DNA of 64,000 nt from Gemmatimonadota bacterium (GCA_041500125.1 JBGQLP010000009.1:2767-66766), one strand, 5' to 3'. Counted from the first letter of the stretch, positions 30,314-52,713 are shown. Translations and numbers: made by a program. The notes: generated by a model from the letters alone, not told the origin.

Positions 30314-31279
30314 ATGACACTCACGAAATCATCCCACTCACCCACGGGAGAGAGCGAAGAGCTCGCCGGTCTCCTTCTGGTTCCGCTTGACGGTTCCAGC
30401 ATTGCCGAGGAAGCCCTGCCGGCAGCGGCAGCCATCGCGCATCGAACCCGGGCCCGGCTTCATCTCGCGACCGTTATCCAGCAGGTGCCGGCGTTGCTCG
30501 CCTCGGGCGAGGAGCCAGCGGTCGATGCCGAGCTCGAGCAGGAGCTCCGCGATCAGGCAGGCGAGTACCTGAAGTCAACCGCCGAGGCGCTGGGAACTAC
30601 CCATGGGGTGGAGGTCAGCTACGCCGTGCTCGATGGTCTTGCAGCCCCGGCTCTGGCCGACCATGCCCGTGCTAAACGGGTCGGTCTTATGGTGATGACC
30701 ACGCATGGACACACCGGTCTCAACCGTCTGTGGCTCGGGAGCGTGGCCGACCGGCTGCTGCGTTGGGTCAAGGTGCCGGTCCTGCTGCTGCGCCCCAAGG
30801 CTGGCTCGCTCCAGGCCGAGTTTCGCCACACCGTCGTGGCCCTGGATGGGTTGAGCGAGGGCGAGCGGGTGCTGGATCCTGCCATCGAGCTGGGCTCCTT
30901 GTGCCCCAGCTCTCAATTCACCTTGGTTCAAGTCGTGGAGCCACCGGCCCCCTTGATCACCCGGCTGGCCCTGCAGCCTGCGACGATGCGGCCGCATTGG
31001 CGAGAGCTGCGGGAGAACTGCGCCCGGAGCTATCTCGAGCGGGTGGCAACGCGGATGCGGACCCGCGGCTTGCGGGTGAAGACCCAGATGATCTCCGCCC
31101 GCGGGGTCGCAGAGCAGATCCTCGGGCTGGCGGACGCTATTGGCGCTGACCTGCTCGTCGTCGGGACCCATGGTGCTCGGGGAGTCGAGCGTATGCTGCT
31201 CGGCAGCGTAGCCGACAAAGTCATCCGCGGCGCGTCGCAGGCGGTGCTGGTGGTGCCGACCCGGAGGGAAGAAGAGTGA
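30314..31279 (+). CDS. Tandem universal stress protein
   Basis: [16 protein letters not shown]; [15 protein letters not shown]. Confidence 0.92.
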
Positions 31280-31701
31280 CCGCGACGCCGCTGCTGCCGG
31301 CACACGAGATGCGGCAGCATACCTCGGAGATCGAGCTGCACGTCCGCGCCGGCTCGCTGGGTGATCTCTTAGCCGAAGCCGGCCGGGCTCTGGCCGAAGT
31401 GGAGCTCATCAAAGCTGACTGCGTGCCGGGCGGGCCGGTTCGAACCATTCGGGTCACCTCATCGGACCGGGAAGCATTGCTGGTTGACTGGCTCAATGAG
31501 CTGATCTTCCTGGCGGATTTCGACCGCTGGGTCGCTCTGGATTTCAGCATTAACCTGGCCGAAGAAACGGAGGTACGGGCGGGGGCGTCCGGCGTCACGC
31601 TGGAGTGGGGGCTGAGCCGGGTCAAAGCGGCGACATTCCACCGGCTGCGGGTCGAGGATGTCCCCGGAGGATTGGAAGCCAATGTCATCCTCGACGTCTG
31701 A
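31276..31701 (+). CDS. Archease
   Basis: HTSE, LLVDWLNELIF, VKAATFHRL, C-terminal ILDV; directly upstream of rtcB. Confidence 0.9.
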   Translation: MTATPLLPAHEMRQHTSEIELHVRAGSLGDLLAEAGRALAEVELIKADCVPGGPVRTIRVTSSDREALLVDWLNELIFLADFDRWVALDFSINLAEETEVRAGASGVTLEWGLSRVKAATFHRLRVEDVPGGLEANVILDV

Positions 31702-33136
31702 CGGTTCCTTGTCTGACTATGCCACGGTCTCCGTCAGTCCCCTTATCCGGGAGATCCCCGTGACTGCCCGACCGGATATGCGGGTGCCGGTACGAGTATA
31801 CGCCGACGAATACCTGTGGCAGCAGATCGTGAGGGACCGCTCTCTGGAGCAGGCGGTCAACGTGGCCACGCTTCCCGGCGTAACCGGGTGCGTCTACGCC
31901 ATGCCCGACGTCCATGAAGGCTATGGTTTCCCCGTTGGCGGCGTCGCGGCGCTCGACGTCGAGGAAGGCGTGATCTCCCCGGGCGGGGTGGGCTACGACA
32001 TCAACTGCGGGGTGCGGCTCCTCGCTTCGGACCTGGATCTCTCCGCGGCTCGACCCCGGCTGGAAGCTGTGGTTCACGATCTGAGCCGGAGCATTCCCTC
32101 CGGGCCGGGCCGGAATCCGCAGCTCGATCTCACTGCTACCGATCTCGATCGCGTGCTCGACGAAGGGGGGGCGCTCCTACTGGAGCGCGGGCTCGCACTG
32201 CCTGAGGATCTCCCCAACACCGAAGCCGGCGGCCGGCTCGCGGCCGCTCGGAGCGCGTGCGTCTCCGTCAAGGCAAAGCAGCGGGGTCACAACCAGCTCG
32301 GCACGATCGGCTCGGGGAACCACTTCGTCGAGGTCCAGGTGGTCAACGAGGTGTTCGAGCCAGAGGCCGCGGCCGCGTACGGCCTGCGTCGGGGACAGAT
32401 TACCCTGCTCATCCACACCGGATCACGAGGCCTGGGGCACCAGGTCTGCACCGACTACGTCCGCCAAATGGACCAAGCGATGGCCCGCTACGGCATCCAC
32501 CTGCCGGACCGCCAGCTCGCATGCGCTCCGTTCGACTCGCCCGAAGGGCAGGCGTACTTCGCCGCTATGTGTGCGGCAGCCAACTTCGCCTGGGCCAATC
32601 GGCAGACGATCACCAGCTCGGCTCGGCGGGTATTCGCGCGAGCGTATGGCACGGCCGGACGCCTGAAGCTGGTGTATGACGTCGCCCACAACATCGCCAA
32701 GGTGGAGGAGCATGGCGGTGCCAGCCTCTGTGTCCATCGAAAGGGTGCCACCCGCGCCTTCGGGCCATCCCATCCGGAGACACCAGCGCCGTACCGTGCG
32801 GTCGGGCAGCCGGTCTTCATTCCCGGCAGCATGGGAACGGCATCCTACGTATTGGCGGGCAACGACGCGGCCATGACTCTGAGCTTTGGAAGCACCTGTC
32901 ATGGTGCAGGCCGGGCCATGAGCCGGAGCGAGGCCAAGCGCACCCGTCCCGGCCATGAGGTCCGCCGCGAGCTCGAGCGCCAGGGGATTATCGTGCGCTG
33001 CCCGTCGAGCAGCGAGCTCGCGGAAGAGGCCCCTACCGCATACAAGGACGTCGAGCGGGTGGTCGGCGTCGTACACCAGGCGGGCCTGGCCCGTAAGGTG
33101 GCACGACTCAAACCGCTTGGCGTCGTGAAAGGCTAG
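31682..33136 (+). CDS. rtcB: RNA-splicing/repair ligase RtcB (archaeal/eukaryotic-like type)
   Basis: MPDVHEGYGFPVG, GYDINCG, GSGNHF, HTGSRG, HRKGAT, HGAGR, EEAPTAYK. Confidence 0.96.
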   Translation: MSSSTSDGSLSDYATVSVSPLIREIPVTARPDMRVPVRVYADEYLWQQIVRDRSLEQAVNVATLPGVTGCVYAMPDVHEGYGFPVGGVAALDVEEGVISPGGVGYDINCGVRLLASDLDLSAARPRLEAVVHDLSRSIPSGPGRNPQLDLTATDLDRVLDEGGALLLERGLALPEDLPNTEAGGRLAAARSACVSVKAKQRGHNQLGTIGSGNHFVEVQVVNEVFEPEAAAAYGLRRGQITLLIHTGSRGLGHQVCTDYVRQMDQAMARYGIHLPDRQLACAPFDSPEGQAYFAAMCAAANFAWANRQTITSSARRVFARAYGTAGRLKLVYDVAHNIAKVEEHGGASLCVHRKGATRAFGPSHPETPAPYRAVGQPVFIPGSMGTASYVLAGNDAAMTLSFGSTCHGAGRAMSRSEAKRTRPGHEVRRELERQGIIVRCPSSSELAEEAPTAYKDVERVVGVVHQAGLARKVARLKPLGVVKG

Positions 33137-33142
33137 ACACAT

Positions 33143-33481
33143 ATGGAGCTACCCTTGCAGATCACCGCCCACAATCTCGCCCTGGCTCCGGCCGATGAGC
33201 AGGCGATCAGGGGCGCCGCTACCAAGCTGGACGAGTTCGCGTCTCGCATTCTCAGCTGCCGAGTCGCCATCGAGGGTGAGGGCGGCGGACATAGCGGCCG
33301 CCAATATCGGATCCATATCAAGCTGGATGTTCCGGGCGAGGAGATCGTGGTGCGACGCCGGTCGGACGAGACAATCCCCGTGGCGGTGCAGAAGGCCTTC
33401 AAGGCCGCCGGCCGAAGGCTGCAGGATCACGTGCGGCGGCAGCGAGGAGACGTGAAGCTTTCAGGAGGGCGCCGCAATTGA
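33143..33481 (+). CDS. HPF/RaiA-family ribosome-associated protein
   Basis: LQITAHN, CRVAIE, IKLDVPGEEIVV, AFKAAGRRL. Confidence 0.85.
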   Translation: MELPLQITAHNLALAPADEQAIRGAATKLDEFASRILSCRVAIEGEGGGHSGRQYRIHIKLDVPGEEIVVRRRSDETIPVAVQKAFKAAGRRLQDHVRRQRGDVKLSGGRRN

Positions 33482-33489
33482 CAAGGGAC

Positions 33490-33534
33490 TTTCATCCCAA
33501 CTTCATGATCGCTTCACTAGGTCGACGATACTTT
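33490..33534 (+). promoter_or_regulatory. CTTCA-box array plus -10 leading into a structured non-coding region
   Basis: TTTCA/CTTCA/CTTCA at 33490/33501/33512; TACTTT at 33529. Confidence 0.75.
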
Positions 33535-33540
33535 GAATCT

Positions 33541-33770
33541 GAGAACGTTGCAATGGTGGAGCCAGTCGCGTGCTTCACCCATGTCGCGGCTGGCGTGGCG
33601 ACATGCAGTGCAAGACGACGGTCCGCGACCAGTCCGACTTGCAGCGCCCGCATGAGCGAACCAGACGGTGCGATCACACCGTATGGGAATAGAAGCCGGA
33701 GCTCTCGAGGCTCAACCGCCGAACATCAGATCAGCGGTGCCTAGAGAAGAAGAACAAGGAAGCGATTCTC
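33541..33770 (+). ncRNA. Candidate structured sRNA or long hemJ leader
   Basis: Hairpins at 33580-33605, 33609-33643 and 33665-33682 directly after a box promoter; no recognisable protein. Confidence 0.35.
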
Positions 33771-33836
33771 TGACCCCGGTAACTCGTGCGTAGGGCGGCC
33801 TGCATCCTGAGGTAACTCAGTCTGCGGGTCGCCTTT
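33701..33836 (+). repeat. Direct repeat copy 1 (~135 bp)
   Basis: 33701-33794 matches 40177-40270 at 93/94 nt; weaker similarity continues. Confidence 0.95.
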
Positions 33837-39993: not shown

Positions 39994-40176
39994 GACTGAT
40001 TAGATTAGGGACATCTTTCTTAAAACTTTCGACGCTCCCCCATATCCGGGCCTAGCAAGGCCTCGAATGCTGCTCTTCATTCAGAGCGCGGAAGCGGTGA
40101 TTTACCGACCTCCGGCCCAGGTGCTTGCGGGAACTGAGGTCAGCCTCGGAGCTCTTGCGTGCGTGGTGGTTCATGG

Positions 40177-40310
40177 GCTCTCGAGGCTCAACCGCCGAAC
40201 ATCAGATCAGCGGTGCCTAGAGAAGAAGAACAAGGAAGCGATTCTCTGATCCCGGTAACTCGTGCGTAGGCGGCCCGTAACTGAGGTGACTCAGCGCGGG
40301 TCGCCTTCTT
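40177..40310 (+). repeat. Direct repeat copy 2, overlapping the 3' tip of cls
   Basis: 93/94 nt identical to 33701-33794. Confidence 0.95.
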
Positions 40311-44554: not shown

Positions 44555-45223
44555 ATGCCACGTTTTCTGGAGACCGAACCGCTGTTCCATGATCGGCTCG
44601 ACGCCGGCCAGCGGCTGGCCAAGCGCCTCGAGTCGTTCCGCGATGCATCGCCGGTCGTGTTTGCTATTCCCCGCGGGGGTGTTCCGGTTGGCGCAGAGGT
44701 CGCTCGCCAGCTCGACGCTGAGCTCGACGTGGTGGTGGCTCGGAAACTCGGGGCCCCCTTCCGGGCTGAGCTCGCCATTGGGGCGGTGGCGGCCGATGGC
44801 GAACGGTTCCTGAACCAGGACGTCATCAGCCAACTGCGGGTGGACGAGGCTTATATCGAGCAGATCACGAAGGAACAGGGGGAGGAAGCACGGCGGCGGG
44901 AGCAGCGGTTTCGGGGGGGCCGCCCACCGGTGGACATCAAGGGCAGAACCGCCCTGCTGGTGGACGATGGACTCGCGACTGGGGCTACGATGCAGGCGGC
45001 TGCCCGCTCTCTCCGTAAGCGCGAGCCTGGCCGGCTGGTCGTGGCGGTCCCGGTGGGCTCCCGGGAAGCGTGCTGGGCCCTCCTCAAGGATGCCGATGAG
45101 GTGGTATGCCTTGCCCAACCGGATCCTTTCTATGCCATTGGTCTGTATTACGAAGTCTTTGAGCAGGTTGAAGATGCAGAAGTCCTACGCCTGCTGAAGC
45201 AGCCCGCCCCGCTGGGAAGCTGA
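44555..45223 (+). CDS. Phosphoribosyltransferase (paralogue of 25613-26257)
   Basis: AIPRGGVPV, ARKLGAP, LLVDDGLATGATM. Confidence 0.9.
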   Translation: MPRFLETEPLFHDRLDAGQRLAKRLESFRDASPVVFAIPRGGVPVGAEVARQLDAELDVVVARKLGAPFRAELAIGAVAADGERFLNQDVISQLRVDEAYIEQITKEQGEEARRREQRFRGGRPPVDIKGRTALLVDDGLATGATMQAAARSLRKREPGRLVVAVPVGSREACWALLKDADEVVCLAQPDPFYAIGLYYEVFEQVEDAEVLRLLKQPAPLGS

Positions 45224-45278
45224 AGCTTGGGTGCGAGAGCGTCGGGAGCGATATGATCTCCGACGCCCTTCGCGCCAC

Positions 45279-45680
45279 CTACGGTACTCGGCGGTGGCCC
45301 CGGGGCCCATGATGAGTCGGATCTGGTGGATGATCGGCATTGGGTCCCAGCCGATGCTCGGCCGGGTCGCCTTTGCCACGCCCGCGTGACGGATCGTGCA
45401 CCGGCTCGGGGCGACCCGGTCTTCCAGCCTCGACTTCCAGTCGTGCCCGGCTCAGCCAGCGGCGCAGCTCCCCGGGCGCCATGGCAACCACCACCCGGTT
45501 TCCGGCGTGGCTTACTTCGACTTGAACCGGGATGCCGCCCGCCTCAGGGGACGCCGGGCGGTCCGGTGTGAGCCATTGCGCGAGCTCTTCGGAGCCGAGC
45601 TCCAAACCGTAGCGTTCACCACCAGGCAGCCTCAGCGTGACGTGCTGAACGTTATGCGAGAGTTTGTGTGACACCGACAC
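45279..45680 (-). CDS. Hypothetical protein
   Basis: Strong SD GGAGGAGG before GTG; the C-terminal part is low-complexity and may be frameshifted. Confidence 0.5.
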   Translation of the reverse strand: MSVSHKLSHNVQHVTLRLPGGERYGLELGSEELAQWLTPDRPASPEAGGIPVQVEVSHAGNRVVVAMAPGELRRWLSRARLEVEAGRPGRPEPVHDPSRGRGKGDPAEHRLGPNADHPPDPTHHGPRGHRRVP

Positions 45681-45713
45681 CTCCTCCAGGGTTCTCCACC
45701 ACTCCGGGATGAA

Positions 45714-45860
45714 GATGCGCTGCGGGTGACGCGACCGGCTGTTCCGACCGGTCTCGAGAGGCCGATCCCCGACTGCTGGAGCGGTCCCGACGGCATGTAC
45801 CGTTGCTTAGCGACACGGTATACTGAACCGCCGACCTGATGGCGCCAGCCGCAGCGCATC
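45714..45860 (-). ncRNA. Candidate ~147-nt structured RNA (sRNA or leader)
   Basis: Perfect 12-bp terminal stem (45860-45849 with 45725-45714) extended by 6 bp, plus internal hairpins; starts just after TAGAAT -10. Confidence 0.55.
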
Positions 45861-45864
45861 AACC

Positions 45865-45908
45865 ATTCTACACCACCCGCCTGAAGCGCCCGTGAAGACC
45901 GCGCGAAG
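45865..45908 (-). promoter_or_regulatory. CTTCA-box array plus near-consensus -10
   Basis: TGAAG/TGAAG/CGAAG at 45882/45893/45904; TAGAAT (minus) at 45870-45865. Confidence 0.8.
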
Positions 45909-45988
45909 GTTCCGCTCGCTTCGTATTCCGACGCTATCAAATCGTGACTTCCGCGGCGGTCCTATTCACTCAGGCTCCCCCGGTTCCT

Positions 45989-46231
45989 TCACTCCTTATT
46001 TGAATCCGCTTCTGGCTCGGTCAGCTCGGCCTCGTTCTGCAAACCCTGCCGAAAGACCAGGGCCCGGAGTGCGGTTTCATCCAGCCCGCGGAACAACTCG
46101 GCGACCTTTTGCAGCGCCTGGGCTCGCCCGTTCGTGGCGAAAGTTCGCTCAATCTGTTCGGCCAGCAAGCGGACCAAGTGCTCGCGGGATATGACGTCGG
46201 CCTGGGCGCTCTTGCTCACGTGGTGTTTCAT
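45989..46231 (-). CDS. Small hypothetical protein
   Basis: ATG 4 nt after the baeRF stop; amphipathic helical sequence. Confidence 0.6.
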   Translation of the reverse strand: MKHHVSKSAQADVISREHLVRLLAEQIERTFATNGRAQALQKVAELFRGLDETALRALVFRQGLQNEAELTEPEADSNKE

Positions 46232-46235
46232 GGGC

Positions 46236-47432
46236 TCACCGGAATCGGAGTGTGGCTGCAAGACCGTCCACCGCGTCGGCCTCCGCACAGTCAGGGACTA
46301 GGACCACTCGCACTCGCTGGCGCAACGCCTCCTCGATGGCCTCATCAACCAGGTCGCGAACCGGTTTGGGCTGCCCCTCGTTCCGGCAGTCGCCCTTGGC
46401 CAGTACCAACCGGCCGGTGGCAGAACAGCGAAACCCCTGACCCTCGAGATTGTCGCGAAGGAACAGAGTGCGGACCTGGCCTTGGTGAAGCGCCCTCAAC
46501 GTCTCCCGTGCCCCGTTCACCGCCCATCCGCTGCCCACTGCATCATCCAGCCCCCTGAGCTCGGACTCGATGATCTTCCGGCTGTGCTCTTCTGCCAGCG
46601 ACAGGCTAGTCGCCTGGAGCTCGGTCGTACTGATGGCAGTCGGATTGAGCTTGACGGAACCCAACATGCGGTCGGCGATCCCCTCGGGGAGGAAGCGCGT
46701 CAGCGCGGCCGTATGGTCGGTTGATCCGGCGAGAACAACGCCGCGAACCGGGCGCGCCCGAAGAATCTCCTGGGCTCGCTGCACCACATTAGCGTAGTGC
46801 CGGTGGTGTTCCTCCTCCAGCCGGCGGTGATAGTCATGCTCACCCCAGCCGGGGGCGCCACCACGGTCAGAGTGAAACCCTCCACCCCGCGTGCTGGGAG
46901 CCGTCAGACATGCCTGCTCGGTAAGGCCCGCGGCGGTCACTTCGAAGAAGCGAGCATGCGCCCGATCGAACACGATAGTGAGAATGGGCTGGGCTTCCTC
47001 AACTGACGCGACCAGTTCTCCGATCCACGGAGTATCATCCAGCATCAGCCGGGTTCGGTGGACTCGGGTAAGGGCGGCTGCCTCGAACAGGCCCAATTCC
47101 TCGCAAGCAAAGATGGCCAGCCCGGGAGTATGCGGCAGATCGCGCGGATGGCCCAGGTAGCCAAGAATCTGGTTGAGGTCTCTCTCAACGGCCAGGCGCT
47201 CGTCGCGGGCCAAAGCCAGCACCATAGGATCGGCCCGCAAGGCCTTCACCCGGTCCTTGAATTCCGTGATGAGGTAGCTGGCTCGGGTGCGGTCCCGGGG
47301 CTTTAGCCTGATATAGCAGGACAGGATGTGATGACTGCCGGCCGGAATTGCCGTCAGCCGCTGGATCAATCCCGGCACATCGGTGGACACGCTCAGCGTG
47401 GCCGGCGACCTTCCTAATATCTGCCCTGTCAT
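46236..47432 (-). CDS. Bacterial archaeo-eukaryotic release factor-like (baeRF / eRF1-pelota fold) protein
   Basis: GLAIFAC, DRAHARFF, VVLAG, AVNGARETLRALHQGQVRTL, DLVDEAIEEAL, C-terminal GLAATLRFR; ATG 47432. Confidence 0.85.
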   Translation of the reverse strand: MTGQILGRSPATLSVSTDVPGLIQRLTAIPAGSHHILSCYIRLKPRDRTRASYLITEFKDRVKALRADPMVLALARDERLAVERDLNQILGYLGHPRDLPHTPGLAIFACEELGLFEAAALTRVHRTRLMLDDTPWIGELVASVEEAQPILTIVFDRAHARFFEVTAAGLTEQACLTAPSTRGGGFHSDRGGAPGWGEHDYHRRLEEEHHRHYANVVQRAQEILRARPVRGVVLAGSTDHTAALTRFLPEGIADRMLGSVKLNPTAISTTELQATSLSLAEEHSRKIIESELRGLDDAVGSGWAVNGARETLRALHQGQVRTLFLRDNLEGQGFRCSATGRLVLAKGDCRNEGQPKPVRDLVDEAIEEALRQRVRVVLVPDCAEADAVDGLAATLRFR

Positions 47433-47469
47433 GTGTTGCTCCCTCATCTGGTAGATTGATGCCAGATGC

Positions 47470-47907
47470 CTACGCCAGAATGCGGGGCTTCTGCTGCTCG
47501 AGCAGCTGGCCGATCGAGCCCGCCTCCCCCACGACCACCCCCAGAACGTCATCCATACTGAGAAGCCCGACGACCCTATTTTCCTCGCCGGTCACGACCA
47601 AGCGGCGAGTCCCCTGCCGCGCCATGATTGCAACCGCGTCCTCGATGGGGGTGTGCTCGTCCACACAGTGAACCGGGCTCGTCATCACCGCGGCGATTAC
47701 CGTCTCGTCAGGATCCAGGCGTCCGGCAATGCAACGCACTGCGAGATCTCGGTCCGTGAGGATGCCTATCGCCTGCCTGGGATGATCGGTTCCCACGACA
47801 ACCAGGGTTCCAACGTCGTGCTCGGCCATGCGGGCCGCGGCTCTCCTGATACTCTCGCCGCCGGATGCCGTCGCGACGACCCGGCTGCAGATCCTGCCTA
47901 CTGACAT
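47470..47907 (-). CDS. CBS-pair protein
   Basis: VGTLVVV..GILTDRDL; RRLVV..VGLLSMDD. Confidence 0.92.
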   Translation of the reverse strand: MSVGRICSRVVATASGGESIRRAAARMAEHDVGTLVVVGTDHPRQAIGILTDRDLAVRCIAGRLDPDETVIAAVMTSPVHCVDEHTPIEDAVAIMARQGTRRLVVTGEENRVVGLLSMDDVLGVVVGEAGSIGQLLEQQKPRILA

Positions 47908-48747: not shown

Positions 48748-50766
48748 TCAGATCGATCGAGGAGGGAAGGCTGCTCGGAGCGCGTTAAGGATCACGGCGA
48801 CGTCGATCGCCTCCTGCAGCAACGCCCCGGCTACCGGCGGGATGTAGCCGAAGCTTGCGACTACCATCGCCGCTCCACTCAGCCCCAGCCCCGCCCAGAT
48901 GCTCTGCCGGGCCAGTCGCAGGGTGCGGCGGCTGATCGTGATAGCCTCGGCAACCCGACTGGGGTCGTCCGCCAGGATCACCGCGTCGGCAGCCTCGGCG
49001 CTGATGCCTCCGCCGCCGGAGGCCAGCGCGATCCCAACCGTCGCGGTGCTGAGTGCCGGCGCGTCGTTGGTCCCGTCCCCAACCATGAGGACGCGCTCCC
49101 CTTCCTTCATGAGGCGTTGGACGTAGGCGACCTTCTCTTCCGGCAACAGGTCGCCATGCGCCTCTTCGATCCCCACCGCACGTGCCACTGCCGTAGCGTT
49201 GGCCTGATCGTCACCAGAGAGGAGGACGATCTTCGAGAGACCCAGGGAGCGGAGCTCGGGGATGAAGCCGACCAGCTCCGGCCGCAGCCGATCGGCGTAC
49301 TCGATCAATCCGGCTCCCTGCCCATTGACCGTGACGTAGGCTCTAAGTCCAGCGCCCGGTATCTGGGTCAGCAGGCCCTGGAGGGGAAGTTTAGCGGCAG
49401 GATGACGGTGCACCACAAACGACCACCCACCTACCGTCACCTGCTGGCCCTCCACCTGGCCACTGACTCCCTGGCCGGGTGCCTCGATGACGTTCTCCCC
49501 CGGTGGAAGCTCGATGCCGCGTTCGAGTGTTTCCTGGACTAACGTGCGGGCGAGCAGATGCCCGGACCCGTGCTCCACGCTGCCGGCAAGCCGGAGTACC
49601 TCAGGCTCGGTGAACCCAGGTGCGGGGAGCACCCGGGCGACCCGGGGCCGTCCGATCGTCAGGGTTCCTGTCTTGTCGAAGACGGCTACGCCGACCCGGC
49701 CGAGCTGCTCCAGCGCGCTGCCGTGGCGGAAGATGATGCCCCGGCGGGCGGCGCGGTTGATGCCACCGACCACCGCCACCGGCGTGGCGAGAATGAGCGG
49801 GCATGGGGTTGCGACGACCAGCACGGCGAGCACCCGAGTGGGATCGCCGGATAAGAGGTAGGCTCCGACACAAACGGCAAGGGTAATGGGGGTGAACCAG
49901 GCGGCGTATCGGTCGGCCAGCCGCTGGAGCGGCGACTTGCTCCCCTGAGCGGTGCGGACCAGGTCCACAATCCTGGCATATTGGCTTTCACTCGCGGGAG
50001 CCGTCGCGCGAACGGTGAGGGGACTCTCGAGGTTGAGGCTGCCACTGAGCAGCTTGATGCCGGCGTCAGCGCTCACCGGAACCGGCTCTCCCGTGAGCCG
50101 GGATGCGTCCACGTGGGAGCGGCCTTCGAGCACCACGGCATCGCAGGCCAGCAGCTCCCCAGGCCTGAGCAGGAGCTCGTCGCCCACCCTGACCATCTCC
50201 GCCGCCACGTCGGTCACCTCGCCACCCAGCATCCGATGGGCCAGGCGGGGAGCGGCTGCTTCGAGCTCTCGAACCGCCTCCGACGCCCGGCCTTGCGCGT
50301 ATCGCTCGAGCGCCTCGCCGCCGGTCTGCATGAGGACCACGATGAGACCGGCGAGCGGCTCCCGCAGGATCAGCGCGGTGATGATGGCCAGCATCGCCAC
50401 GAGATCCGCGGCGAAACGGCCCCCGGCAATGCCCCGCAGGGTCCGCCAGACGACTGGCGCGCCGGTGAGTGCCAGCCCCGCGCTCCACAGCAGGGACGCC
50501 ATGCCGGGGCGCCCCGCTATATGGAGGAGCAGCCCGGTCAGAATGAAAAGAAGAGCGCCGGCCGGAAGAAGGTAGAAACGGCCCGGCAGGTGGTGGGCTA
50601 GAGCGCGGGCGAGATCTCGGCCCCGTCCCCGCCGCGGCGGAGGCTGAACCCCACGCCCCGGACCGTGGCCAACAGCTGCTCCTTGGCGGCCTCGCTGAGC
50701 TTCCGGCGCAGATTGCCCACGTGGACGTCCACCACGTTGCTCTCCGGATCGAAGTGCATGTCCCAT
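48748..50766 (-). CDS. Heavy-metal P1B-5-type ATPase (start uncertain)
   Basis: ATPCP, DKTGT, QSIWAGLGLSGAAM (QX4GX3SX3M), PVAGALLQEAIDVAVILN. Confidence 0.88.
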   Translation of the reverse strand: MGHALRSGEQRGGRPRGQSAPEAQRGRQGAAVGHGPGRGVQPPPRRGRGRDLARALAHHLPGRFYLLPAGALLFILTGLLLHIAGRPGMASLLWSAGLALTGAPVVWRTLRGIAGGRFAADLVAMLAIITALILREPLAGLIVVLMQTGGEALERYAQGRASEAVRELEAAAPRLAHRMLGGEVTDVAAEMVRVGDELLLRPGELLACDAVVLEGRSHVDASRLTGEPVPVSADAGIKLLSGSLNLESPLTVRATAPASESQYARIVDLVRTAQGSKSPLQRLADRYAAWFTPITLAVCVGAYLLSGDPTRVLAVLVVATPCPLILATPVAVVGGINRAARRGIIFRHGSALEQLGRVGVAVFDKTGTLTIGRPRVARVLPAPGFTEPEVLRLAGSVEHGSGHLLARTLVQETLERGIELPPGENVIEAPGQGVSGQVEGQQVTVGGWSFVVHRHPAAKLPLQGLLTQIPGAGLRAYVTVNGQGAGLIEYADRLRPELVGFIPELRSLGLSKIVLLSGDDQANATAVARAVGIEEAHGDLLPEEKVAYVQRLMKEGERVLMVGDGTNDAPALSTATVGIALASGGGGISAEAADAVILADDPSRVAEAITISRRTLRLARQSIWAGLGLSGAAMVVASFGYIPPVAGALLQEAIDVAVILNALRAAFPPRSI

Positions 50767-51299
50767 ACTTTCTCCAGGAGCGTAGTGCGCCGGACGACTT
50801 CTTCGGGGTGAAGCAGGAAATACTCGAGCAGTTGAAACTCCTTGGGGGTGAGATCCAGCCGCTTTCCATCTATGGTCGCGACATGCCGGAGCCGGTCAAG
50901 CGCAATCGGAGGATAGCGCAGGACTTCCAGCCGCTCGGCACCCCCACGGCGGTGGAGGGCCCGGATGCGGGCCAGGAGCTCGTCAAACTCGAACGGCTTC
51001 GCGAGATAATCGTCGGCCCCGGCATCCAGCCCGCGCACGACGTCCTCCACCGCGTCGCGTGAGGTCAGCATCAGGATGGGCGTAGCCCGTCCCTCCCGCC
51101 TCAGCTCGGTCGCGACCTGGAAGCCGCTCTTCTTGGGGAGCACAATATCGAGCAGGATGACATCGTAATCGTACACGTGAGCCAGCAGGGTGGCCTCGTC
51201 GCCATCCGGCGCCACGTCCACGATATACCCTTCTTCCTTCAGCCCCTGTTCGATGAACCCGGCGACCTTCCGGTCGTCTTCCACCACGAGGATCTTCAT
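50598..51299 (-). CDS. OmpR/PhoB-family response regulator
   Basis: REC (VVEDD, LLD, GADDYLAKPF) plus winged helix (LTPKEFQLLEY, VW, SNVVDVHVGNLRRKL, TVRGVGF). Confidence 0.96.
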   Translation of the reverse strand: MKILVVEDDRKVAGFIEQGLKEEGYIVDVAPDGDEATLLAHVYDYDVILLDIVLPKKSGFQVATELRREGRATPILMLTSRDAVEDVVRGLDAGADDYLAKPFEFDELLARIRALHRRGGAERLEVLRYPPIALDRLRHVATIDGKRLDLTPKEFQLLEYFLLHPEEVVRRTTLLEKVWDMHFDPESNVVDVHVGNLRRKLSEAAKEQLLATVRGVGFSLRRGGDGAEISPAL

Positions 51300-51306
51300 G
51301 CGCGGT

Positions 51307-51361
51307 AATCTGGGGAGTAGTGGTTAAGGTCCTCCGGAAGCCTTCATGAAGCTTTCTTCAC
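51307..51361 (-). promoter_or_regulatory. Autoregulatory box array for the response regulator
   Basis: GGAAG/TGAAG at 51336/51347; palindrome ATGAAGCTTTCTTCAC at 51346-51361; CAGATT (minus) at 51312-51307. Confidence 0.6.
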
Positions 51362-52602
51362 GTTCGTGGGCTAGCGGGAAGCTCGAGCACAAAGCAGCCG
51401 CCGCCGCCGGCGGGCCGGGCCAGCGCCCGTAGCTCCCCGCCGAGCAGTCGGGCCAGCCGCCGGGAGAGAGGTAGCCCCAGCCCCATGCCGCGGGTGTCAC
51501 CCACGTCCTTGCTGATGTAGATGTCGAAAATTCGCTCGATCTCGCTCTCCTCGATCCCGGATCCCTGGTCCAGCAGGGTGTAGATCACGATGGATTCCCG
51601 GCCGGTGACCTCGAGGCGGACTGTGCTCCCCTCCGGCGTATGCTTGATGGCATTGCCCAGCAAGTTGATCAGGATCTGCTCCACCCTGCTGGCGTCGGTC
51701 TCGCAGCTGGGAAGATCCGGGGCGACGTCTACCTGGAGCAGGATCCGTTTGGCCTCTGCTGCTGGTGTGACCCGAGCGACCGCCCGCCCCGCCATGGAGC
51801 CTGGGTCGGTGGCCCGGATCACCGGTCGCAACCGGTCTTCGTCGAGTCGGCTCAGATCGAGCAGGTCGTTGATGAGTCCGACAGCCTGCTTGGCCGAGTC
51901 GAGCACCTCGAATGCGGCTTTGGGGACGGTGGCCGGGTCTTTCTTGCGCACCATCATCTCTGCCCAGCCGTGCACCGCGGCCAGAGAGTTCCTCAGTTCG
52001 TGGTTCACCATGGCGAAGAAGCGCTCCCGGGTTCGATGGAGCTGCTGCACTTCCTCCAGCAGCCGGGCGCTCTCTTCATGCAGCCTCGCGTTCTCGACCG
52101 CCGCAGCAGTGTTGGCCGCAAGGAGCACGGCGATGTGCTCATCCTCGTCGGTGAACCGCTCGCCCCCCAGCTTCTCCGTGAGATACAGATTACCGAAAAT
52201 GCCCCGTTTCCCCACGATCGGGACCCCAAGGAACGATTGCATTGGAGGATGGTGGGGCGGGAAACCGTAGGACTCGGGGTGTTTGGTGAGGTCGGGGAGG
52301 CGAATCGGTCTCGCCGCGCGGATTACCAACCCCAGAATGCCATGGCCCCGCGGCACGTCTCCGATAAGCGCACGTTGCTGGGCATCGATGCCGTGGGTGA
52401 CAAAGCTCTCCAAGAGCCGGCCATCCGGTGCCAGCACCCCAACGGCGGCGAATCGGGCTCCGATGACCTCGGCCGCCACCTCTACTACGCGCTCGAGCAC
52501 CCCTTCCAGGGAGACTTCGGTGATCAAGGAGGAGGCGGCTAAGACCAGCCGCTCCAGCCGTGGGCTGCCCGGAGCCGGACGGGCGATTGATGTCTGAGTC
52601 AC
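51358..52602 (-). CDS. Sensor histidine kinase: DosS-type heme-GAF + HisKA + HATPase
   Basis: GAF with HPESYGFPPHHPPMQSFLGVP..GNLYLTEK; H-box NHELRNSL; NLLGNAIKHT, DQGSGI, GMGLGL; GTG 52602 likely start. Confidence 0.92.
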   Translation of the reverse strand: MTQTSIARPAPGSPRLERLVLAASSLITEVSLEGVLERVVEVAAEVIGARFAAVGVLAPDGRLLESFVTHGIDAQQRALIGDVPRGHGILGLVIRAARPIRLPDLTKHPESYGFPPHHPPMQSFLGVPIVGKRGIFGNLYLTEKLGGERFTDEDEHIAVLLAANTAAAVENARLHEESARLLEEVQQLHRTRERFFAMVNHELRNSLAAVHGWAEMMVRKKDPATVPKAAFEVLDSAKQAVGLINDLLDLSRLDEDRLRPVIRATDPGSMAGRAVARVTPAAEAKRILLQVDVAPDLPSCETDASRVEQILINLLGNAIKHTPEGSTVRLEVTGRESIVIYTLLDQGSGIEESEIERIFDIYISKDVGDTRGMGLGLPLSRRLARLLGGELRALARPAGGGGCFVLELPASPRT

Positions 52603-52648
52603 TCCCAAAGCTATAGCGAAAGCTCGCCCGTCCGAAACCCCGAAAAAC

Positions 52649-52693
52649 ATTCGTACTGCCTTAATGCTTTCTTCACGGCCCCGCCGGTAGGCT
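52649..52693 (+). promoter_or_regulatory. CTTCA-box array plus -10 for the USP operon
   Basis: ATTCG/CTTAA/CTTCA at 52649/52660/52671; TAGGCT at 52688. Confidence 0.7.
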
Positions 52694-52713
52694 GCAAGCA
52701 AAGGAGGAGGCAG

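Follow-up and report, generated by a model that had tools for sequence, protein, structure and literature searches.

Y RNAs such as YrlA and YrlB are non-coding RNAs linked to rtcB in rsr-rtcBA operons, and their ends are paired in a long stem that carries a conserved irregularity. RNAs of the 6S/Ms1 type, which are abundant under stress and in stationary phase, also have paired ends and act by binding a protein, the RNA polymerase. A third point of reference is DrrS (MTS1338) of Mycobacterium tuberculosis, a small RNA (sRNA) that belongs to a dormancy-type regulon and is controlled by DosR. In DrrS, the first transcribed nucleotide is the first base of the 5′ stem, an arrangement that confers unusual stability; at least two unpaired nucleotides added at the 5′ end destabilise the RNA, and the 5′ stem-loop both stabilises it and raises expression of a fused reporter (PMC5360333). 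The subject of the present work is an RNA predicted on the minus strand of a 64,000-nucleotide (nt) stretch of DNA from a Gemmatimonadota bacterium (GCA_041500125.1 JBGQLP010000009.1:2767-66766), hereafter called the window. This RNA has its two ends locked in a long stem and follows a promoter with three direct-repeat boxes (Table 1). We are highly confident that it represents a genuine and new family of promoter-coupled structured RNAs, in a phylum on whose RNA biology, to our knowledge, almost nothing is known. That it works as a stable, trans-acting, protein-binding stress RNA is the reading we favour, with a probability that we put at about even.

Fold, covariation and promoter of the RNA

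The original prediction, made from the sequence alone, had described an RNA whose end-to-end stem is interrupted by a C-C mismatch and encloses two hairpins. Reading of the minus strand located every one of these stems exactly at the nucleotides assigned to them. Folding of the 147 nt with RNAfold yields an identical closing stem and a minimum free energy of −73.9 kcal/mol, a stability that none of 200 dinucleotide shuffles attained (−59.6 ± 4.0 kcal/mol; z = −3.62). P1 and P1b together form the 18-bp closing stem of a four-way junction, from which the inner helices P2, P3 and P4 emerge (Table 1). The covariance-model match extends over positions 45710-45862 (minus strand).

A DNA search over 60 relatives returned one clear homologue, in genome G032, where the match covers nearly exactly the predicted RNA without its flanks; hsp20 is on one side of the element there and a divergently oriented CBS gene on the other. 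With a covariance model built on two sequences, 8 copies were detected among 103 genomes of the genus, in 6 of them, and an 11-sequence model returned the same 6 genomes. At least 6 more copies came from pattern scans over public genomes and metagenomes, whose matches were filtered with the models. The family thus counts at least 14 copies, carried by 11 Gemmatimonadales genomes (one copy each, except for three in G273) and by one metagenome contig. This size is a lower bound set by the pattern scans: of at least 120 loci from the metagenomes, 1 was a true copy, and in the second genome scan (at least 119 loci) L249-L287 were scored with the model, yielding 2 new copies and 1 known copy, and L169-L248 were screened by regular expression alone. 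The covariance model detected no copy elsewhere in the family (147 genomes from 77 other genera), and no true copy apart from that of G032 in a sample of the order. One match of 30 bits in this sample (genome G309) was rejected, being located inside a coding region and lacking a box promoter. The data set X24, which is probably DNA, contains a relative of the RNA (aligned to 45716-45874, ~91% alike) that is followed by a start like that of the ribonucleotide reductase gene behind copy G273a.

The 14 copies score 92-164 bits against the covariance model. In the model-based alignment of these sequences, standard pairs occupy 94.5% of 566 cells and changes on both sides, of the compensatory kind, are found at 16 of the 41 pairs. 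None of 500 column shuffles matched the observed values on any of five measures, and pairing fell to 31-46% when the 3′ partners were slid by 1-3 columns. Since a model-based alignment is fitted to the structure, the test was redone with a structure-blind MAFFT alignment and RNAalifold, which recovered P1, P1b, P2, P3 and P4 with compensatory changes at 10 of 37 pairs. P1 has 9-12 bp across copies and a sequence that is nearly invariant except for one C-G/U-A switch; the mismatch that separates it from P1b opposes a conserved C to C or U. Compensatory changes are found in the 6-bp P1b at pairs 16/144, 17/143, 18/142 and 19/141, in the P2 tip at all three pairs and in P3 at 4 of 6 pairs. The CUCGA of J3/4 is invariant in the 14 copies, and in one subgroup P4 is a 7-bp stem closed by a GGAA tetraloop. 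Pairing of the P3 loop (UCGG) with J3/4 (CUCGA) as a pseudoknot was examined and rejected: J3/4 is invariant, the loop differs in 3 copies, and the two do not covary.

Covariation and shuffle controls exclude a chance palindrome in GC-rich DNA as the source of these stems. The original prediction had also raised the possibility that the real product is a leaderless small protein translated from an ATG at position 45859. This frame is open for 75 codons in the genome of the window, but it is interrupted by stops in 8 of 13 homologues and the ATG is found in 1 of the 13. Insertions and deletions shift its phase, leaving 36-110 of about 145 columns in phase, and its GC content by codon position (0.54/0.68/0.66) is unlike that of the real genes of the surrounding genomic island. 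The open reading frame (ORF) appears to be open by chance alone, and we attach almost no weight to an explanation of the locus by a leaderless protein or a fortuitous palindrome.

Three boxes and a TAGAAT hexamer were confirmed upstream of the RNA; TAGAAT occurs nowhere else in the 64-kb window. Upstream of each of the 14 copies come three boxes of the YTTCAY type with an 11-nt period and then a TAnnnT-like −10, with 10-11 nt between box 3 and the −10. In each copy the first paired base of P1 lies 4-6 nt past the −10, so that transcription initiated at the usual distance would start within the initial nucleotides of P1. Regulators of the OmpR/PhoB type typically recognise three direct repeats at helical spacing. 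The boxes are presumed to be the site of a putative OmpR-type activator, bound at the place of a −35, and the adjacent OmpR-type regulator would be the obvious candidate for this role. A generic σ70 scan found no full −35/−10 promoter at the RNA, as expected if the promoter is activator-dependent. The motif GAGTGAA (12 occurrences versus 5.7 expected) had been tried as the box and was given up for the YTTCAY repeats.

A position weight matrix built from the 14 sites that precede the RNA copies scored 35 genomic sites at 14 bits or more, of which 16 are on the 75-kb island contig of the window. The RNA's own site ranks first, a position that is partly circular because this site is included in the matrix. 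Sites on the island contig are found upstream of hsp20, CBS, both GGDEF genes, USP genes and the PRPP synthetase gene, among others. The USP-archease-RtcB-HPF operon has two to three boxes of the same type, which makes the co-regulation of RtcB with the RNA plausible.

Stand-alone genes and 5′ fusions

The original prediction had hesitated between an sRNA and a regulatory leader of the gene downstream; both descriptions hold, for different copies. A stable hairpin is found directly downstream of 7 of the 14 copies and 5 of these have U-rich tails (Table 1), an organisation that identifies them as independent sRNA genes. The next gene is convergent in at least two copies (U9681 and U1243), and in G233 a tRNA-like sequence, recognised by eye, follows. 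The copy in the window and five others are fused to genes. In G273c the RNA is cleanly inserted between the box promoter and an hsp20 leader that is found without the RNA in G000, the genome of the window. The mobile unit would therefore be the box promoter together with the RNA, placed before members of the same regulon.

Such fusions would be the whole purpose of the RNA if it were purely a cis-acting 5′ module, either a structured cap against 5′-end-dependent decay or a long-stem processing site, with the stand-alone copies decayed or incidental. Six fusions lack an intervening terminator (to hsp20 twice, and to a class II ribonucleotide reductase, a CBS protein, the 131-aa ORF and one other ORF), P1 starts at the predicted start in all 14 copies, the G273c insertion separates a box promoter from a leader that exists elsewhere without it, and the 5′ stem-loop of DrrS has the corresponding effects on RNA stability and reporter expression (PMC5360333). 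Seven copies, however, end in a hairpin or terminator of their own, have no gene on the same strand that could be protected and still keep the complete fold with its invariant junction, and a simple protective hairpin would need no conserved four-way junction. We consider an exclusively cis-acting role unlikely. A sensor function can be weighed on the same copies. The multi-helix junction closed by P1, its invariant nucleotides and the GNRA-type loop of one subgroup are aptamer-like, and some copies do lie in 5′ leaders, as a riboswitch controlling the genes behind it would. Those genes are heterogeneous, though; in at least 2 copies the next gene is convergent; in 7 of 14 copies the downstream hairpin is independent, without overlap with P1; an 18-bp P1 would make a poor switch; and no Rfam riboswitch matched. 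A riboswitch or sensor aptamer is thus highly improbable. In the trans-acting, protein-binding RNA that we favour, the primary action is taken to be in trans, since half of the family consists of independent genes, each with a terminator.

In the window, neither a terminator nor a promoter was found between the RNA and the 131-aa ORF, and the two are presumably co-transcribed. The ORF codes for a conserved hypothetical protein of a real but narrow family (16 protein clusters, 69-98% identity). Across 14 sequences its last 45 residues, rich in Pro, His and Arg, hardly change; its N-terminal part is variable and resembles two repeats of a 'V.L..PGEL..WL'-like motif. Searches of this protein gave no Pfam family, no usable Atlas match and no hint to the role of the RNA. 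The ORF has its own box promoter, with no RNA upstream, in G273 and G233, and in G273a it is found behind the ribonucleotide reductase gene that comes after the RNA. One RNA-seq run (X23) gave a single contig of 257 nt (45429-45685) located within and just upstream of the ORF, and no contig over the RNA; with a depth of about 4, the contigs of this run are uninformative on expression or processing of the RNA.

Table 1. Elements of the RNA locus in the window and features downstream of the other copies (coordinates are those of the window; P, paired helix; J, strand between helices)
Feature	Position	Strand	Description
Direct-repeat boxes	45881-45909	−	CCTTCGC, TCTTCAC, GCTTCAG; 7 nt + 4-nt spacer, 11-nt period
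−10 hexamer	45865-45870	−	TAGAAT; read from the sequence
RNA core	45714-45860	−	147 nt; four-way junction closed by P1/P1b; RNAfold and covariation
P1, 5′ arm	45849-45860	−	GAUGCGCUGCGG; pairs with CCGCAGCGCAUC (45725-45714); predicted transcription start within its first nucleotides
P1/P1b mismatch	45848	−	conserved C opposite C45726 (1×1 C-C mismatch)
P1b, 5′ arm	45842-45847	−	UGGCGC; pairs with GCGUCA (45732-45727)
J1/2	45834-45841	−	CAUCAGGU; unpaired, nearly invariant
P2	45788-45833	−	base helix CGGCGGU/GCCGUCG and variable, covarying tip hairpin UACCGU/ACGGUA (45820-45815/45803-45798)
P3	45762-45784	−	hairpin CCGCUCC/GGAUCGG, loop AGCAGUCGG
J3/4	45754-45761	−	contains CUCGA
P4	45733-45753	−	hairpin GACCGG-UCGGAACAG-CCGGUC; arms 45753-45748/45738-45733
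131-aa ORF	45279-45674	−	fused to the RNA of this window; start GVG at 45674 (or 45680), preceded by GGAGGAGG
Hairpins, copies U16330, U191, U9681			14-15-bp stems; z −6.6, −4.1, −4.5
Hairpin, copy U1243			z −3.2
Hairpin, copy G233			z −3.8
Hairpin, copy G230			z −2.7; without U tract
Stem, copy U2651			overlaps the 3′ tail of the RNA, then UUUCUUUUCC
Fusion, copies G032, G273c			hsp20
Fusion, copy G273a			class II ribonucleotide reductase
Fusion, copy G230			CBS protein, past the hairpin without U tract
Fusion, copy G273b			uncharacterised 397-aa ORF

The surrounding island and a possible archease-RtcB link

The window has a GC content of 65% and is part of a contig of a 3.48-Mb genome in 155 contigs. 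Pfam scans of the island around the RNA identified six tandem-USP proteins, the USP-archease-RtcB-HPF operon (30314-33481; RtcB gene, 31658-33136), HemN, a desaturase, two PAS-GGDEF proteins, PLD and PRPP synthetase, an eRF1-like protein of the baeRF_family10 (46236-47552), a CBS protein, Hsp20, a P-type ATPase, KaiC, and an OmpR-type regulator with a GAF histidine kinase (50598-52701). We take the gene content of this island (29227-57000) to mirror the mycobacterial DosR regulon: the genes presumed to be shared are those of Hsp20, the USPs, the CBS protein, the eRF1-like protein, archease, RtcB, HPF, HemN and the P-type ATPase, together with class II ribonucleotide reductase, PFK and nitroreductase, whose genes lie beside the RNA in other genomes. 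Control of the island seems to rest with an OmpR-type regulator and direct-repeat boxes in place of DosR.

RtcB proteins of the genus fall into two score classes against PF01139, one of ~550-570 bits in 10 of the 103 genomes (the high type, which is split in one genome) and one of ~200-230 bits in 17 others. All 6 genomes of the genus that carry the RNA are among the 10 with the high type, and it was detected in none of the remaining 93. In the 4 high-type genomes without a copy, three of which are 73-85% complete, a search of higher sensitivity also found no RNA. Five further carriers lie outside the 103-genome set and 4 of them have a high-type RtcB. The RNA begins 64 nt past the stop of archease-rtcB in G278, and its distance from rtcB is ~3 kb in G032 and 12.6 kb in G000. 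The GAF kinase is found in 64 of the 103 genomes, so the RNA, with 6 of 103, is much rarer than the regulatory system. A baeRF paralogue of the island type (at least 52% identity) is found in 12 genomes, all 6 carriers included. These tallies contain genomes flagged as unpublished (G244 for RtcB; G003 and G243 for the kinase; G003, G214, G243 and G244 for baeRF), none of which carries the RNA. The co-occurrence is a lead to a functional link with the RtcB/baeRF module and not evidence for ligation.

Among the baeRF proteins of the genus, the island type (52-70% identity) is separated from a near-universal type (43-46%). Island-type RtcB and baeRF are patchily distributed, and they are linked to each other in G032, G230 and G272.

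According to the original prediction, the juxtaposed ends of the RNA could make it a substrate of RtcB. The RNA would then be cut out of its transcript and sealed by RtcB-archease, either by circularisation or by splicing of its flanks, the stem serving to hold the ends. This idea gained circumstantial support. The RNA is confined within the genus to genomes with one RtcB type (6 of 10 versus 0 of 93), 4 of the 5 other carriers have this type too, it is adjacent to rtcB in G278 and shares the island and box regulon in G000 and G032, and P1 does bring the two boundaries of the element together. The mechanism finds no support. Primary transcripts begin with a 5′ triphosphate, and on its 3′ side the element runs on into a terminator or an mRNA; two cuts leaving a 5′-OH and a 2′,3′-cyclic phosphate would therefore be needed. 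EndA (PF01974; control positive in 4 archaea) has no match in G000 and an RtcA gene was also not found there; the stem has a 1×1 mismatch only and no bulge-helix-bulge motif; and no known self-cleaving ribozyme matches. Moreover, shared island content could explain the co-occurrence with RtcB, the island-type baeRF showing the same pattern. We regard a dedicated RtcB substrate as highly doubtful. If it existed, the RtcB-sealed RNA would give bacteria an equivalent of the RtcB-dependent circular RNAs of archaea or of unconventional mRNA splicing. A slim chance is given to the idea that the RNA is a dedicated component of the archease-RtcB/baeRF module, either as a scaffold that resembles a Y RNA, works without Ro and serves RNA repair or ribosome rescue in dormancy, or as a leader element sealed by RtcB.

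Other candidate box-driven transcripts were noted in this genome. Its second-best three-box site (32.2 bits) lies outside the window, at G000:C78 from ~7890 to 7740 (minus strand). It is followed by ~125 nt that end in a hairpin and U tract, as seen by eye, and then by the three-box promoter of the next gene, and is a candidate for a second, unrelated box-driven sRNA. Within the window, a three-box promoter of 29.9 bits (33489-33835, plus strand) is located directly after the HPF gene and is followed by ~300 nt without ORF before the UPF0093/HemN genes. This leader folds better than mononucleotide shuffles (z about −4) and could represent either a long leader or another non-coding RNA driven by the boxes. 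It contains one copy of a 94-nt repeat (33701-33794), which is 99% identical to a copy at 40177-40270 (both on the plus strand) found a short way upstream of a truncated gene for a small protein that is encoded on the other strand; a third copy (78%) is on another contig (G000:C46:17721-17835). The repeat holds CAUCAGAUCAGCGG, which matches CAUCAGGUCGGCGG of the RNA at 12 of 14 positions. The gene of an 80-aa protein, for which Pfam has no family, separates the baeRF gene from the promoter of the RNA (45989-46231, minus strand). A truncated, 31-codon paralogue of it lies downstream of the PLD gene (~40087-40179, minus strand), its first 68 nt being 81% identical to the gene of the 80-aa protein.

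Proposed role and relation to known RNAs

For the stable, trans-acting RNA that we favour, the following sequence of events is proposed. An OmpR-type regulator, for which the GAF-kinase/regulator pair of the island is the candidate, would bind the three YTTCAY boxes and activate the promoter, and transcription would begin at the first nucleotides of P1. The RNA would fold into a four-way junction closed by the 18-bp P1/P1b clamp and displaying the (nearly) invariant CAUCAGGU, the CUCGA and the conserved P4. Its 5′ triphosphate end would be buried in a GC-rich helix, which should make it long-lived. Once induced, it would accumulate and act in trans through a partner that recognises its shape, most plausibly a protein of the island; the co-occurring archease-RtcB/island-type baeRF module provides candidates. 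Fused copies, including that of this window with the 131-aa ORF, may additionally or alternatively serve as 5′ stabilisers of mRNAs.

The elaborate, covarying fold and the invariant junction suggest recognition by a protein or within a ribonucleoprotein rather than a simple antisense seed. A base-pairing regulatory sRNA would equally have an independent gene equipped with a promoter and a terminator, and conserved single-stranded segments such as CAUCAGGU, CUCGAGA, UCGGAACAG or AGCAGUCGG could provide its seed. Conservation is found mostly in helices and junctions, however, which is more typical of RNAs recognised by shape, and the duplex energies of these segments with 35 box-driven leaders did not stand out from the background given by 300 random stretches of the genome. 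This screen was crude, lacking genome-wide gene calls, and base pairing is compatible with its outcome; we nonetheless rate a base-pairing sRNA as distinctly unlikely.

Several points weigh against a protein-binding RNA acting in trans. The P3 loop is kept in most copies and differs in 3 of 14, so that it cannot be a universal contact site. The family is small and its range narrow. The 6 of 14 copies that read into genes without a terminator fit a cis role at least equally well. Finally, the co-occurrence with RtcB and baeRF may reflect just a shared island in related, non-independent genomes.

Whatever its role, the locus provides a well-supported structured RNA tied to one activator-dependent promoter and to a DosR-like stress island. 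The orthologous hsp20 genes with and without the RNA are natural controls for discriminating between cis and trans action, and the co-occurrence with one RtcB type offers a concrete candidate for what bacterial RtcB-archease systems act on. Were the RNA merely a stable sRNA, it would still be a new family for Rfam and possibly a 5′ stabiliser part.

None of the 4227 families of Rfam 15 matched the window at gathering score, and none matched the segment 45400-46200 on either strand at E ≤ 10. The known self-cleaving ribozymes (hammerhead, twister, twister-sister, hairpin, pistol, hatchet, HDV-like) likewise gave no Rfam match at E ≤ 10 on either strand. Literature searches on sRNAs and RNA motifs of Gemmatimonadetes and on baeRF, RtcB and archease gave nothing relevant among the matches listed. 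An RNA thermometer of hsp20 (ROSE or fourU) was considered and rejected: the Shine-Dalgarno sequence lies 20-35 nt beyond the RNA in G032 and G273c, and the hsp20 gene of G000 has the same leader without the RNA.

The analogy with DrrS drawn in the original prediction stands for the buried 5′ end, which is predicted here, and for the stress-regulon promoter; it does not extend to homology. DrrS, compared here by its description, is regulated by DosR through a palindrome and consists of serial stem-loops, whereas the present RNA, from another phylum, has three OmpR-type direct repeats for a putative activator and a four-way junction with an 18-bp closing stem. Unlike DrrS, it is also found fused to several different mRNAs. 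It is reminiscent of the Y RNAs in the end-to-end stem closing a multi-helix module and in the link to rtcB, which is tight, in contrast to theirs, in only 1 of the 14 copies. The irregularity between P1 and P1b is a conserved C opposite C or U, whose likeness to a Ro site could be judged only against Ro: Ro60/TROVE (PF05731; control positive in Deinococcus and Bacteroides) has no match in G000, which is 99.3% complete. No tRNA-like domain was found by ARAGORN in 45000-46500, and the P4 loop UCGGAACAG is, by eye, not a T-loop. 6S RNA is a long rod with a central bubble and not a four-way junction; its model, RF00013, has no match in the window or genome, a weak negative since the model was positive in only 5 of 14 control genomes. 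The RNA resembles orphan motifs such as the raiA motif and other Rfam candidates in being defined by covariation, narrow in range and without established function; it differs from them in its tie to a single activator-dependent promoter and in its two forms, independent gene and 5′ fusion. It is a new RNA family of a familiar general kind, the structured sRNA embedded in a regulon, whose unusual traits are the obligatory coupling to one activator-dependent promoter, the modular use in these two forms, and a co-occurrence that is exclusive to one type of RtcB.

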